Source of the DNA: a bacterium
GTDB lineage: Bacteria; Patescibacteriota; Dojkabacteria; GCA-016699595
Direction: 5' to 3'
DNA length: 64,000 nt
Assembly: GCA_016699595.1 (NCBI GenBank)
Contig: CP064982.1
Span: 379,829-443,828 of the forward strand
Made by a program: the position numbers and the translations under genes. Each line of letters opens with the position of its first letter. The stretch's first letter is position 1. The notes beneath the pieces were generated by a model. The model ran no database searches and was not told the origin of the DNA. It was given only the letters and a program-made list of their open reading frames with translations. Positions 1-61,543 of the stretch are shown here, piece after piece.

Positions 1-3000
1 AAAGATACGCTAAGTTAATCTCAACGACCACAGATCCCAAAGAAAGACAAAAATTAAGTCAACAACTAAAGAAAACTAAAGAGAAATTAAATAGCGATGT
101 TGCGAATGCGAAAGTAGATATTGAAAATCATTATAATGAAGAGAGAAAGATTGTTGCAGAAAACAAAAGAGCTATTGAAATTCTAGTAGCGAGAAACATA
201 GACTATGCAAGTTTGCCTCCAATGGAATTACTGGCAATTACTTGGCTTATCGAAGAAGAAATAAACTTTGGAGCAAATAGTGAAATTTTGAAATCAGCTC
301 AAAATTTGGCAAAGTATTATACAGTAACTAGGCAAGCAGATAGACAATTCAATGACCTTCAAGGACGACTCGGCATAAGGGATGTACATAAATTAGGAAA
401 TATACCCCCATGGGTCAATTTGACAAGAAGGGAAGTCGTTGATGATCAAATCAAAACATTCAGAGATTGGGAATTTTCAAATGGACATGACAAAGCAGAG
501 AGAGTAGCGCAATTGATTTCACCAACTAGCTTCGACAAAAATTATGCAACTGTTTTAACTATTAGGGAGAATGAAATTGCAAAAATGAAGGATTTGAAAA
601 TAATTGATGATGATGGATATTACTCTTTGCAAAGAATTGCAGATCTTAATGAGTTGAAAAAGAAGGATGCAAAATCATTAACTGCAGAGGAACTGGCTAC
701 TTTGCAAGTATTTGCAGACATAGAAGACGAATTGACAGCAAATGTCATTACAACTGAAGCAAGAGCTAGACTTACACCGTCAGCTAAAGCAAATTTACTT
801 GAAGAACTAGGTAGAAACGATTTGAAATGGTTACTTACTAGAAAAGGCGAACAAGGGTTAGACCCAAATGAAGATATAGCAGAAAGAATGATTCGCGAAA
901 TGATCGCGCAAGGTTCAAGAGATGTAGGACTCTATATGGCAAAAGTACAAAGAGAAATCACTGGACCGGATGATTCTGGCAAATATATTGAAGATATAGT
1001 TGCACAAACAAAGGAAAGTTTCTTACCTACATACCTAAAGACTCAAGACCTCGCTAGTAGGGCTCATGCAGTTGCCAAGGAAAATGTTGCGTTGCTTATG
1101 CAACAAAATTCTTTCAAAAAATCATACCCCGAACTGCAAGCAAATGACTTGGTTCGTGACATTGCAGAAGCATTGGAAGTTTCGTACAGATGCATTTTGG
1201 AAAGTGAAATGATAGTTCCATCATCAGTTACACAAATCAAACTTACTGGTGATGGACAGATAGCAACTATGATTGAAAGAATTTTGAAAGAAGGTCAAGG
1301 AGCTACTCAACAGATAGAAGATATAGTACATGATGCTTCAAATACACAGAGCATGAGTCCTGATCCTGATGACACTGAATCTCCAACTGCAATCAAAGCC
1401 AAAAAAAGTGTTCCTCAAAAACATGCGGAAGTATTGGTACGATCTTTCCATCAAGCTCCAAGTCCTGACATGATGAGACTTGCATTCCCGGAGTACAATA
1501 GCTCTATAGTTTCAGGTATTAGATTGGATACTGAAGAAGCAAGGAAGCATTATGCAGAGAAATTCGATGTTAGCAGTAATGTGGAAATGGCAACCACCAT
1601 TGCTAGCTACACTTCCGCAAATAACTTAACAAATTACCTAGTATCTACTTTCAAAGGTGGAGGTGCTTGGTTAATTTACAAAAAAAACAAACAGGAACAA
1701 AAAAAAGCTGAAAAGAAACTTAAGTTTTGGGCAGCAATAAACTCTATCCCGATTTTAGGCAATATCAGTGAGATTCATGATGCTATAACGGAACTTGGGA
1801 TCATTTTACCACAACAATGGCAATCCGAACTGAGATCTTATGGCTCAAAGATGTACAAGGATGGAAAAGTCAATCCGTTGTTGCCAACATTGCTTTCAGT
1901 GAGAAATGGCAGGAATGAACCTATTCTAACGAAATATGCATATACCTTGGGTGTACTATCAGAAAATAGTAACGATCATTTTTCCAAAGTACTTGGTAAC
2001 TTCCTTGGAACCAGAGATGAAAGAGCCAAATACAAAGGAGGATTTGCAGACATTCCTTTTCTTACAAAGAGTGTCGTTTGGATCAAGCCAAAAATGCAAA
2101 TCAAGGATGGAAGTGGAAATTTACTCAAAGATGAATTTGGGAAGCCTTTGAAGTTCAAGAAAGCCTACAAAGAAACTGTTGATGGACCATTGAAGAGATC
2201 ATGGTCTGTAAATCAAAGATTTACAGATCCTTTGTTACAAAGCCTACGGTTGGTTGACTACAGAGCTGTAAATATTGGAGGAGAAAATGTCATTATGAGG
2301 GTCAATGTCCCTATGAATGCTCTCAGCAATGCATATCATAGATCTTTTGATGCAGTACTTACTAGGATCTTCGATCCTGGGACGAATTTACCTTATAGTC
2401 AAAACAGCGTTATAGGAACTATCAACAATGGAAGGGTGCAAGTAAACAAAAGGCTGAAACTCGGAGACATTGACAACAAGACAAAAGTTACAAAACTACA
2501 AGGGATAATAATTGATACAAAAACAAATAAAAGAAGATCTACTGTAGATATTATTTTTAGAATAGCTATTCATATTGTAAAAGAAGTCATAGTCGAAACG
2601 GTGAAAGAAGTTGGTCAATTTGTAGACCATAGGTTTGATAATGTAAAGCAATACAGGAGGTTGAAATCTTACTTCAGAGAAGCCTCAACTTCATCAGTTG
2701 AACTTTCAAGATTTGCACTAAATAGATTGAAAACAAGCATGAACCTTTTGCGCGTAACTGCTGGTGGAATTGCAAAGTCTCTACCTGCAGGTGCTGTTGG
2801 TAGTGTAGCTGGTGGATATTTAGGAAGCTATCTAAATCCTATCCTTTCACCTATTTTAGGTAACAATGCAGGTACTATAGTTGGAGCAACAATCGGAGGT
2901 ACATTGTCAGCATCTGCCAAGTTTTCTGAATATATGTTTTCTCCACAGTATAAACTGGGTGGATATAGTAGGTTTCAAAAGGCAGTAATGGAGTTCAATG

Positions 3001-49630: not shown

Positions 49631-49708
49631 GCTATATATATAACTTTTGCAACATTCCTAATAAAGTCATCAAGACAAGAATAATTATAATGTTAGCTAA
49701 ATATGAAA

Positions 49709-55594: not shown

Positions 55595-57340
55595 TTAGCA
55601 GGAACCTTTCACGTTTGAATTAATAATTCCTTGCTTTACAATTTTCAAACTAAGTTTTAAGTTTCCATTCCAAGTATCAATATCTAAATTAAATTTCAGG
55701 TCTATTTTATCACCTTGTTTAAATTTTGAATAATTACTATTTGCAAGATTGAATCCAATTGCAGAAAACTTATCAAAATATAGTTTCAAATGTTTACCAG
55801 AAATTGTTTCAATACTGTTAATCTTCAAATTTTTACAACTGAACTTCGGCTTTGAATTTCCCATTCCAAATGGTTCAAACAATTCCAATTCTTTTGCAAA
55901 TTCAAGAGTAATTTCATCTGCTTCAAGTTCTAGATCTATATTTTCTGGTTTAATTATAAGTTCATCACTTAGTTTTTCATTTACAAGTTTCAAAATTGCA
56001 TTTTGAAACTCATCTAGTTTATCATTTTCAATAGAAAGTCCCGCAGCTTGAGCATGACCTCCATAGCGAGTTAAAAAGGAACTAACTTCATTCAAAGTCT
56101 CAGTAATATTTAGGTGCTTCGTTGATCTACAACTTCCAACTGAGTCCAACTCTGACTTCGATAAAACTATAGTTGGTCTGAAATATTCCTCACAAAGTTT
56201 TCCCGCAACCAAACCTATAATTCCTTCTTCCCAATCTTCCCCAATTATAATCAAAATCTTATTATTATTTTTAACTTGAGGAGTTACTTGAGCTTTTGCT
56301 TCTTGAAGTCTAGTTTCAGTTATTTGCTGACGAGTTGAATTCAATGAGTTTAGATCAATTGCGATTTGTTTAGCAACTTTTAGGTCTAGCGTGGTGAAAA
56401 GTCTAACTGCATCAATTGCTGCAGTCAATCTTCCAGCAGCATTTATCCTTGGACCTAACTTGAAACCTAAATCATATGAACTAATGCTCTTCGTTTCAAC
56501 TCCAGAAACTTTGCAAAGCTCAAACAAACCTAAAAGCCCGCCTTGATAAGGAGGGATGCCGTAGGCAGGGAGGTTTAAAACATTCATATTTCTAATCTCC
56601 TCTAATCCAAATTTAACAATTTTTCTATTTTCATCAATCAATGGCATTATGTCGCAATTTGTCGCAAGCGCAACAAGTGGAAGATACTTTTGCCCGCCTT
56701 GGTAAGGAGGGACGCCGTAGGCAGGGAGGTTTAATCTTTCACCCATCGCTCTCACTAAGTACCAAACTACAGTAGTTCCAGAAATTTCTTGAAACTCTAG
56801 TTTTGAATCTTTCAATTTTGGATGAACTACAATTGCCTGTTTTGGTAATATTTCAGGAATTGTATGATGATCTGTAATTATAAACTCAAAGTAATCGTGC
56901 CATTTCTCATCAATCAATTTTGCATCTTTGATTCCACAATCCACGCTAATCAAAAGTGGTTTTTGGTTATTATTTAAATCTACATTTTGAACTTTAATTT
57001 TGTAAATATCATAAATATTTGTTAAGGAATTTTCAGAAAGACCATAACCTTCATCAAACCTTGAAGGAATATATGGATAAATCTGTTTGTAATTCAAGTC
57101 ATAATATATGAAATTGAATAGTGTTGAAGTTGCACAAACTCCATCTACATCAAAATCTCCATGTATGAAAATCCAACCTCCGGTTTGTATTTGAGATTGA
57201 ATTTTCTCAACTGCTTTTTCCATATTTGGAATTTTGAAAGGATTTTGGAATTCAAACTTTGGATTTACAAATTCTTCAACTTGAGATTCTGAAATATTTC
57301 GAACTTGAAGTAATTTTTTGAAAGTTGAGGTAAATTGCAT
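55595..57340 (-). CDS. recJ: Single-stranded-DNA-specific exonuclease RecJ (carries two in-frame 14-aa LNLPAYG(V/I)PPYQGG repeats)
   Basis: DHH motifs (HGDFDVDGVCATS, ITDHH) and DHHA1 region (GGHAQAAG). Confidence 0.85.
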   Translation of the reverse strand: MQFTSTFKKLLQVRNISESQVEEFVNPKFEFQNPFKIPNMEKAVEKIQSQIQTGGWIFIHGDFDVDGVCATSTLFNFIYYDLNYKQIYPYIPSRFDEGYGLSENSLTNIYDIYKIKVQNVDLNNNQKPLLISVDCGIKDAKLIDEKWHDYFEFIITDHHTIPEILPKQAIVVHPKLKDSKLEFQEISGTTVVWYLVRAMGERLNLPAYGVPPYQGGQKYLPLVALATNCDIMPLIDENRKIVKFGLEEIRNMNVLNLPAYGIPPYQGGLLGLFELCKVSGVETKSISSYDLGFKLGPRINAAGRLTAAIDAVRLFTTLDLKVAKQIAIDLNSLNSTRQQITETRLQEAKAQVTPQVKNNNKILIIIGEDWEEGIIGLVAGKLCEEYFRPTIVLSKSELDSVGSCRSTKHLNITETLNEVSSFLTRYGGHAQAAGLSIENDKLDEFQNAILKLVNEKLSDELIIKPENIDLELEADEITLEFAKELELFEPFGMGNSKPKFSCKNLKINSIETISGKHLKLYFDKFSAIGFNLANSNYSKFKQGDKIDLKFNLDIDTWNGNLKLSLKIVKQGIINSNVKGSC

Positions 57341-57395
57341 AACAAATTTTACTATATATCAAAACACAATTCTTTGTTTTTTAACTAAAAAATAC

Positions 57396-57424
57396 TTGAC
57401 ATGATAGATAGATAGATAGATAAT
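57396..57424 (+). promoter_or_regulatory. Sigma-70-type promoter TTGACA-N17-GATAAT whose 17-bp spacer is built from a (GATA)5 microsatellite (57403-57422)
   Basis: Consensus -35 at 57396-57401, exactly 17 bp of spacer, and -10 GATAAT at 57419-57424, 38-56 bp upstream of the 57462/57480 start. Confidence 0.55.
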
Positions 57425-57461
57425 TGTATTATTATTTAAATTAGACGCAAAATATTGCGTT

Positions 57462-57791
57462 TTGCGTGAGAAAAATATCATGCCAGATTCGCCTGATCGA
57501 TATAAACCTAATGTAGCCTTGCCTAATTCAGATCATTACACTGATGCTACTGAAGTGTCTACAAATGGCAGACACTTGTTATTCGGAGCAAATCGCAGTT
57601 ATACAGATCTACTTAGAGAAATTAGAATAGATCAAGTGTTGATTGCTGTATACGACGGAGGATATGGCAAACAAGCAGTGCATCTTGACTCGGAAAAAGA
57701 GTTTCAAGTATTTTACTCACAACATGCACAGGGTTTCTTCGTAAGTTTTGAATTATATGTTTGTCCGAAAAGTATACTCGTAAGAGAATGA
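57462..57791 (+). CDS. Hypothetical protein
   Basis: 109-aa ORF, no motif. Probable ATG at 57480. Confidence 0.4.
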   Translation: MREKNIMPDSPDRYKPNVALPNSDHYTDATEVSTNGRHLLFGANRSYTDLLREIRIDQVLIAVYDGGYGKQAVHLDSEKEFQVFYSQHAQGFFVSFELYVCPKSILVRE

Positions 57792-57795
57792 CCTT

Positions 57796-58908
57796 TTAGA
57801 TACCGTGTATTACAAGTATATTAGACCTTTTCTTAAACTCATCTGAATATTCTATCCCACTTGCCGCTGTCAAGATTGCTTGCGAAGTTAAGTTATTTAG
57901 AAGGAAATCTTCTACATTTCTCAAATGCTTTTCATCAAGTTCTGAAGGCAAATCGTCCAGTAATAATATTGAGCTATACCCAGCTTCTTGAAATAACTCA
58001 TAAAATGCAACCTTGATTATAAAACTTGCAAGTCGCATTTGTCCTCTTGACCCAAAACTTCGCAGATCTTGAGAATTAAGTAAAACTTGCACATCATCTT
58101 TTTGCGGACCATACATAGTTTGTCCAAGTACTTTCTCTTTTTCTGTTGAAGTATTTAATAATTTTTTAAGTTCAAGTTTGTCGGCTTTGTATCTTGAAAT
58201 ATAATTTAATTCAAAAATGTTATTTTCAAAATGATAAATTTGTTTTGCAATTTCACCAACTTTTGGTTTAATGAGGTCCAAAACTTGCAACCTAGTTTTG
58301 ATAACTTCTTCACTAATCTCAAGAAATTGTTCTGTCCAAAATTTTATATCGTTACTGAAATTTTCTGGCACATCTGACTTTGAAGCAAGTTTCAAAACTT
58401 TATTTCTATTTCTCAGAGTTAGATTAAACTTTATCAACTTTTCTTCGTAATCTGGATAATACAATTTTGCAAAATCATCAATTTCCGATCTTCGAACTTC
58501 AGCTGAATCTGATATGAGATCAATTGATTCTGGAGAAAATATAGTCGCTACAATTTTTGATCTAAATTCGGATTTAGTTTTATGCTTTTCATTTATTCTG
58601 GTTAGTTTCTTGATTCTTTCTCCCTTTTCAAAATAAACTTGTTTCTGAATTACTTCATTGTGTGAAGAATATTCTCCAGTTACATTGAAAAACTTATGTG
58701 TATAAATTGAACTGTCAAAGTCCAAGTTTATACTTACTTCATCTGAAACTTTTCGAAATGCAAACCCATTTGTGAGGTAGTAAATCGCTTCAAGTAAATT
58801 TGTTTTGCCATAACCATTTTCAGCAACAAAAAGATTCAATCTATCTCCTAATTCAAGATTAGATATTTGAAGATTTTTGTAATTTTGGATTGAAACACTT
58901 TTGAGCAA
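57796..58908 (-). CDS. recF: DNA replication and repair protein RecF
   Basis: N-terminus MLKSVSIQNYKNLQ..FVAENGYGKTNLLEAIY (Walker A) and SMC-like signature region. Confidence 0.85.
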   Translation of the reverse strand: MLKSVSIQNYKNLQISNLELGDRLNLFVAENGYGKTNLLEAIYYLTNGFAFRKVSDEVSINLDFDSSIYTHKFFNVTGEYSSHNEVIQKQVYFEKGERIKKLTRINEKHKTKSEFRSKIVATIFSPESIDLISDSAEVRRSEIDDFAKLYYPDYEEKLIKFNLTLRNRNKVLKLASKSDVPENFSNDIKFWTEQFLEISEEVIKTRLQVLDLIKPKVGEIAKQIYHFENNIFELNYISRYKADKLELKKLLNTSTEKEKVLGQTMYGPQKDDVQVLLNSQDLRSFGSRGQMRLASFIIKVAFYELFQEAGYSSILLLDDLPSELDEKHLRNVEDFLLNNLTSQAILTAASGIEYSDEFKKRSNILVIHGI

Positions 58909-61466: not shown

Positions 61467-61493
61467 TTAGCAGTTAAGTTTGAGTTTTGCTAA
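61467..61493. promoter_or_regulatory. Degenerate CIRCE-like inverted repeat (TTAGCAGTT-N9-TTTTGCTAA) upstream of groES
   Basis: TTAGCA and TGCTAA are separated by exactly 15 nt, as in CIRCE (TTAGCACTC-N9-GAGTGCTAA). 13/18 positions match. Located ~73 bp upstream of the groES start on the minus strand. Confidence 0.35.
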
Positions 61494-61514
61494 TTATATT
61501 TATTGCAGAAATTT

Positions 61515-61543
61515 TTGTCAAGTATTTTTTGAAGTGGTATAAT
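61515..61543 (+). promoter_or_regulatory. Near-consensus sigma-70 promoter TTGTCA-N17-TATAAT (extended -10 TGgTATAAT)
   Basis: Read directly from the sequence. Oriented toward the 61634 and miaA genes. Confidence 0.55.

Follow-up and report, generated by a model that had tools for sequence, protein, structure and literature searches.

The window analysed here, by which we mean the whole 64-kb stretch of DNA, contains a small gene without an assigned function between recJ and recF, as the earlier note had described (Table 1). The small gene diverges from recJ and converges with recF. A terminator scan detected no terminator between the small gene and recF, so that transcripts from the strong promoter would be expected to continue into recF in antisense orientation, and those of recF into the small gene. 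The stop codons of the two genes are 4 bp apart (57789-57798). The small gene had been described as encoding 109 aa (57462-57791), which would place its start at a TTG codon; the gene itself stands as the presumed target of the promoter described below, whereas its start is likelier to be the ATG at 57480, which is also the start given in GenBank and yields a product of 103 aa. The log-likelihood per codon was +0.22 in frame, compared with -0.63 and -1.06 out of frame, and the GC content decreased in the order GC1 > GC2 > GC3. With this normal coding signal, the small gene appears to be a real coding gene; it is also encoded on a Logan contig of 8,605 bp. The lack of a Shine-Dalgarno sequence in front of it is uninformative, because only 4 of the 42 genes in the window have the Shine-Dalgarno core. 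Several genes of the window, recJ among them, have a -10-like hexamer a few bases 5' of the start codon, and their mRNAs may therefore be leaderless or carry short leaders.

Table 1 Features of the region between recJ and recF, and contigs that carry relatives of the small protein.
Feature	Position	Strand	Evidence and remarks
recJ	55595-57340	-	Pfam DHH, DHHA1, RecJ_OB; NCBI name RecJ; divergent from the promoter
-35 hexamer TTGACA	57396-57401	+	6/6 consensus; sequence reading and promoter scan
17-bp spacer TGATAGATAGATAGATA, T then (GATA)4	57402-57418	+	Sequence reading
Perfect (GATA)5 microsatellite GATAGATAGATAGATAGATA	57403-57422		TRF and regex scan
-10 hexamer GATAAT	57419-57424	+	5/6 consensus; first T missing; fifth repeat unit supplies the first four bases
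Predicted 5' leader, about 50-55 nt	57425-57479	+	Conserved in the related contig L003
Alternative -10 TATTAT	57427-57432	+	9/12 with TAGATA inside the repeat; promoter scan and simulation
103-aa gene, function without assignment, presumed promoter target	57480-57791	+	GenBank QQR93239.1, IPJ91_02140
recF	57796-58908	-	Pfam SMC_N; NCBI name RecF; convergent with the 103-aa gene
Small-protein family members on virus-like contigs	L004-L007, 6001-6576; L012, 5001-5240		

The intergenic region between recJ and the small gene carries a sequence with the hexamers, spacing and orientation of a sigma-70-type housekeeping promoter. In the consensus promoter scan, TTGACA and GATAAT separated by 17 bp matched the consensus at 11 of 12 positions. 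The (GATA)5 tract accounts for 16 of the 17 bases in the spacer and extends over the first four positions of the -10 hexamer; TRF described it as period 4 with 5.0 copies and 100% matches, so that in silico the repeat fills the spacer of an 11/12 promoter. Direct reading of the sequence agreed in every position with the hexamers and the 17-bp gap first noted here, and both this reading and TRF placed (GATA)5 in the spacer as had been claimed. Transcription is predicted to start near 57430-57432.

An 11/12 match is by itself within reach of chance. Matches of at least 11/12 numbered 11 in the window compared with 5.1 +/- 2.0 in shuffles, and at the lower threshold of at least 9/12 there were 69 matches in 14 kb where 65.7 were expected. 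Four of the 11 sit antisense within genes, and at least four are found in the 11% of the DNA that is non-coding, upstream of correctly oriented genes. Canonical -35/-10 promoters appear to be in use in this genome, given this enrichment and the intergenic, correctly oriented matches, one of which is a 12/12 site before groES. As to the repeat, (GATA)5 is the sole tetranucleotide tract with three or more units in the window, and the regex scan found only one other simple sequence repeat (SSR) of at least 10 bp, (TA)5 at 49633. The expected number of 5-unit tetranucleotide tracts under an iid model is 9e-5 per 64-kb window and 1e-3 per 762-kb genome, and tetranucleotide tracts of four or more units never arose in first-order Markov shuffles. 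Because the tract is such a unique outlier, we infer that it arose by slippage and not from base composition. Homopolymer runs are depleted in the window (two of at least 9 nt vs 11.6 expected, and none of at least 10 nt vs 4.4 expected), which makes (GATA)5 conspicuous, since slippage-prone DNA is otherwise avoided in this genome.

We compared the region with its nearest relative. Among 5.8 billion proteins, the closest match to RecJ by BLASTP was P0019, with 75% identity (78% over aligned codons), while all others reached at most 44%. P0019 is encoded on a 3,432-bp contig, L003, which has a homologous divergent intergenic region. In the orientation of the window, L003 reads CTTGACA-TTATAGATAGATAGGTA-GATTAT, a 10/12 match with a 17-bp spacer. 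The -35 TTGACA (435..430) is identical to that of the window, and the -10 GATTAT lies at the same distance from it and keeps A2 and T6. The spacers have equal length and match at 15 of 17 bases. The equivalent of the tract (428..409) reads TATA GATA GATA GGTA GATT in L003, that is, 20 bp with three substitutions and no indel, and no perfect GATA run in L003 exceeds about two to three units. Where the window has the alternative -10 TATTAT, L003 has CATAAT.

The conservation is sharply confined. The block that begins one base ahead of the -35 and runs to the ATG (57395-57482; L003 348-436) is identical at 76 of 90 positions (84%), whereas the third codon positions of recJ, which we used as the neutral reference (about 0.65), are 63-67% identical (P=3e-5 for the block), and the stretch of 54-66 bp that separates the -35 from recJ reaches only 53% identity, with indels. 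Because the block exceeds both the neutral level and the adjacent DNA, the core promoter and leader are under purifying selection. Intergenic position, correct orientation and conservation in the relative together make the promoter credible, and the small gene very probably has here a functional promoter of the sigma-70 type reading into it. The spacer, at 88%, is conserved to a similar degree as the whole block (84%), and the divergence within the L003 tract (15%) equals that of the whole block, as would be expected from ordinary decay of an ancestral perfect tract. The simplest history would be an ancestral tract, perfect or nearly so, that decayed in L003 and stayed intact here by chance. 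Judging from this one comparison, the 17-bp spacing seems to have been held since the lineages of the window and L003 split.

A second relative of the locus was not found among the 5.8e9 proteins or in the JGI metagenomes. When these metagenomes were scanned with the promoter flanks joined by a gap of variable length, which allows any repeat number, there were no matches; a scan built on words from the conserved -35 and leader produced three, all of which were unrelated chance matches. The RecJ search of genome contigs returned relatives of 30-32% identity only, and among named sequences the nearest RecJ proteins are from Candidatus Dojkabacteria (about 38-41% identity). In the two relatives at 43-44% identity (L013 and L014), recJ lies within a co-directional operon and there is no divergent intergenic region, so these contigs are uninformative on the promoter. 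The divergent promoter arrangement thus appears to be confined to the lineage that comprises the window and L003.

The predicted leader of the small gene folds at -16.6 kcal/mol in the window (z -2.55), while the z score is 0.05 in L003, and the two hairpins at 57443-57462 and 57464-57483 are present in this genome only. An attenuator or riboswitch formed by the leader hairpin was considered and rejected as a conserved structure, since the hairpin is stable here and not conserved in L003. A permissive Rfam search of 57200-57900 gave no match. On the other side of the intergenic region, the hexamer TAAAAT ends 5 nt before the ATG of recJ and is conserved in both the window and L003, suggesting that recJ has a proximal promoter of the leaderless type that is clear of the repeat.

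We then scored consensus promoters in simulated alleles with 0-9 GATA units. Promoters of 11/12 were obtained with five units (using GATAAT), with three units, where TATTAT at 57427-57432 would pair with TTGACA at 17 bp, and with two units (TATTAT at 16 bp). With four units, or six and more, the best promoter dropped from 11/12 to 9/12 or less. The 9/12 promoters formed by TAGATA with either TATTAT at 16 bp or GATAAT persisted at every unit number from five upward. The earlier note had proposed that gain or loss of one unit switches the promoter off. In silico the 11/12 promoter is indeed lost, but because the residual 9/12 promoters persist, a change in unit number would result in high and low expression and not in a clean on/off switch.

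In most proven tetranucleotide switches the unit number is between 10 and over 30. In Haemophilus influenzae, most tetranucleotide tracts have 15 or more (PMC4235727). PhasomeIt requires at least five units within 200 bp of the ATG for tetranucleotides (PMC5953494), and (GATA)5 is just at this minimum, yet Table 1 of PMC4235727 would place it in the 'mutable' and not the 'hypermutable' class. In that table, tetranucleotide tracts of 3-9 or 3-12 units are 'mutable', with predicted rates of 1e-7 to 1e-5 per division, and 'hypermutable' tracts have more than 9-10 units; the ranges overlap, and 2-4 units are also counted as proto-mutable. Switches are rare in the 'mutable' class (PMC4235727). By length, (GATA)5 fits the 'mutable' SSR class of Bidmos and Bayliss 2014 (PMC4235727); that class is said to arise mainly from genome composition, whereas (GATA)5 is far beyond composition and lies in a conserved promoter.

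Promoter-spacer phase variation, the mechanism that had been invoked, is a known one. The optimal -35/-10 distance of 17/18 nt is modulated by SSRs, with changes in expression (PMC4235727), and in Neisseria meningitidis the poly-G tract of porA and the poly-C tracts of opc and fetA lie between the -35 and -10 (PMC3639595; PMC4235727). The locus resembles these in that the repeat sits between the hexamers, its length sets the spacing and would thereby set promoter strength, and one length would be optimal. It differs from them in the tract, five tetranucleotide units changing in 4-bp steps here compared with hypermutable homopolymers of 9-12 or more units; in the length polymorphism, which occurs between and within strains there and was not seen in the comparison with L003; and in the target, outer-membrane proteins there and a soluble-looking protein without an assigned function here. 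In the account of van Ham et al. (1993) given in PMC11868660 and PMC2651432, the H. influenzae hifA and hifB genes share a combined divergent promoter with (TA)9-11. Here too a divergent gene pair has the repeat within its core promoter, and a decayed, non-variable form of the hif tract, (TA)4ATTA in strain R2866 (PMC2651432), parallels the interrupted tract of L003. According to these accounts, however, the 9-11 dinucleotide units of the hif tract have been demonstrated to control both genes, while the candidate recJ-side promoter at our locus is weak (8/12) and the proximal recJ promoter is likelier. The AGAT(n) tract of Moraxella catarrhalis uspA2 is GATA in another register and likewise lies upstream of the ORF, at about 130 bp, and affects the transcript level, altering expression 1.4- to 3.4-fold (PMC7302503). 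Unlike (GATA)5, it is not between the hexamers, has 12-20 units, varies between strains and controls a surface protein.

That the tract acts as a phase-variable switch, the central proposal of the earlier note, is possible in principle but found no support in the relative, and this one comparison partly speaks against it. The repeat number does not differ between the two: L003 keeps five 4-bp units, a tract of equal length (20 bp) and the 17-bp spacer, and differs by its three substitutions. For H. influenzae, short SSRs of threshold length in which strains differ by substitutions and not in length were judged 'not consistent with phase variation' (PMC2651432), and the pattern in L003 appears to be the one reported for such short, non-phase-variable repeats.

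The 103-aa protein gave no Pfam or PHROG match. A HMMER scan of 1.8 billion representatives yielded eight weak relatives of 83-182 aa (most of 83-94 aa; E 4e-5 to 8e-4); a ninth match, to an Ig-repeat protein, was spurious. A leave-one-out family HMM, built with the query excluded, scored the 103-aa protein at 64 bits, which argues that the family is real. The contigs of the family members carry genes for ribonucleotide reductase (RNR), ankyrin, PLOD-type glycosyltransferase (GT_PLOD) and SNase, and the family also occurs on a giant-virus MAG in IMG/VR, so the few homologues of the protein appear to lie on giant-virus-like contigs. It is odd to find a family that otherwise occurs on such contigs in a Candidate Phyla Radiation bacterium. 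The AlphaFold model (pLDDT 74, pTM 0.62) is a small alpha/beta domain; it had no PDB match and no significant fold match, and the best, non-significant fold match was an uncharacterised Marseillevirus protein (E 0.0098). By eye, the sequence has no apparent signal peptide or membrane segment, and the product looks small and soluble, which makes the gene unlike a typical contingency gene. Nor does the window, which covers 8% of the genome, contain another slippage-prone tract that would make the target part of a set of SSR loci. Behind the promoter and leader, L003 has a gene (L003 3-350) unrelated to the 103-aa gene, and the DNA similarity ends at the ATG. Homology of the two downstream genes was considered and rejected (BLASTP E 0.61; hhalign probability 0.1%; DNA local score equal to that of shuffles). 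This suggests a swappable slot for accessory genes behind a conserved promoter and leader.

Several explanations of the tract can be considered. It could be a genuine contingency promoter, in which slippage toggles the 103-aa gene between high expression (five units, 17-bp spacing) and low expression (four or six units). The perfect tract reaches the in-silico cut-off (PMC5953494) and lies exactly between the -35 and -10, the simulated 4- and 6-unit alleles fall from 11/12 to 9/12 or less, and no comparable tract exists in the window, where other slippage-prone runs are depleted. The target would be an accessory gene with virus-associated homologues, conceivably tied to phage-host conflict. 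Genes of phage-host conflict are often phase variable. We nevertheless regard this explanation as unlikely. In L003 the tract has equal length and is interrupted by three substitutions, implying that a switch was not maintained in that lineage; five units are 'mutable' (1e-7 to 1e-5 per division) and not hypermutable (PMC4235727), and proven switches are longer, such as the 12-20 AGAT units of uspA2 (PMC7302503). In addition, the 64 kb contain no second slippage-prone SSR locus, the product is by eye small and soluble, and the residual 9/12 promoters at every higher unit number make an 'off' state doubtful.

The GATA tract could instead be a functional DNA element in itself, either a regulator site or a spacer shared by overlapping divergent promoters. 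In the latter version, the plus-strand promoter would be combined with a weak recJ promoter, AATACA (57430..57425)-18-TATCAT (57406..57401), in a manner like hifA/hifB. Promoter spacer sequence is usually free to vary. Here 15 of the 17 spacer bases are conserved, and the minus-strand candidate, 8/12 in the window, has a 9/12 counterpart at the corresponding place in L003 (ATGCAA-17-TATAAT); the (TA)n tract in the combined hifA/hifB promoter of H. influenzae provides a precedent (PMC2651432). But the conservation of the spacer does not exceed that of the remaining block, AT-rich DNA commonly yields matches of 8-9/12 (as the count of matches of at least 9/12 given above indicates), the conserved recJ-proximal TAAAAT fits a promoter that does not touch the repeat, and no regulator or motif is known, so that we consider such an element very unlikely. 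It also seems highly improbable that there is no promoter at all, that is, that the hexamers are chance occurrences in AT-rich intergenic DNA and the repeat is a neutral microsatellite. The -10 is partly made by the repeat itself (GATA followed by AT) and lacks the first T, about five matches of at least 11/12 are expected per window by chance, and 4 of the 11 observed are antisense within genes. Against this, the -35, the spacing and A2 and T6 of the -10 are conserved in L003; the conservation is sharply bounded, with only 53% identity just upstream of the -35 and an end of the similarity at the ATG; the site is correctly oriented, 55 nt upstream of a gene with coding signal; and a neutral microsatellite would not be expected to hold its length and 84% identity at such divergence.

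The explanation we favour, with a probability of about 0.6, is a fixed and conserved promoter that is built on an old, length-stable microsatellite of the 'mutable' class. According to this explanation, a conserved sigma-70-type promoter with a leader of about 50 nt would drive the accessory gene divergent from recJ, and its spacer would have been built by slippage-expansion of GATA before the split from the L003 lineage. In both lineages the tract would since have stayed at the length needed for the optimal 17-bp spacing, remaining perfect here and acquiring three point substitutions in L003. The promoter would be fixed and probably constitutively 'ON', while the perfect five-unit tract would retain a latent, low-rate capacity for slippage by +/-4 bp that would weaken the promoter; we saw no sign of its use or of selection for it. 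It is notable that a perfect tract was kept precisely in a promoter spacer while other slippage-prone tracts are avoided, which counts against a plain fixed promoter. Two assemblies at the 17-bp 'ON' length would also fit phase variation under selection for ON, or assembly of the majority consensus, and the stability of the 'ON' length is judged from a single relative.

Under the fixed-promoter explanation, the locus would be a clean example of how an optimal 17-bp spacing is built from a microsatellite and then held fixed, and it illustrates that reaching the customary software cut-off is not enough to call a repeat phase variable, and that length polymorphism is needed as well. A common promoter and leader before unrelated genes in two related genomes also give a small lead on the exchange of accessory genes in reduced genomes. 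It would be a long shot that (GATA)5 is a working contingency switch gating an accessory gene that has homologues solely on giant-virus-like contigs and occupies a swappable slot in a Dojkabacteria-like Candidate Phyla Radiation bacterium of about 0.76 Mb. If true, no earlier case of SSR phase variation has been reported from the Candidate Phyla Radiation, as far as our literature search shows; the switch would mean that bet-hedging driven by repeats reaches beyond host-adapted pathogens into ultra-small uncultured environmental bacteria, and would provide a handle on an accessory gene without an assigned function.

Some further features were observed in the window. The first 30 codons of recJ (57251-57340) have 93% nucleotide identity to L003, and 28 of their 30 third positions match, compared with 63% gene-wide (P=1.6e-4). 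A near-palindrome, TTCTGAAATATTTCGAA, lies within this start region at 57287-57303. These features hint that the 5' end of recJ may be under an overlapping constraint at the nucleotide level, for example an operator or an RNA element. Further inside recJ there is a GC-rich direct repeat of 43 nt (56536-56578 and 56692-56734; 95% identical, 156 nt apart), which is in frame and encodes LNLPAYG[VI]PPYQGG twice; L003 likewise has the two copies (1156-1188 and 1303-1335). The 12/12 promoter of groES (61521..61493, minus strand; region 61468-61543) is followed by a CIRCE-like inverted repeat, TTAGCAGTT-N9-TTTTGCTAA. Its -35 overlaps back to back with the -35 of an 11/12 plus-strand promoter with a TG extension (61515-61543), which reads into a 75-aa ORF.
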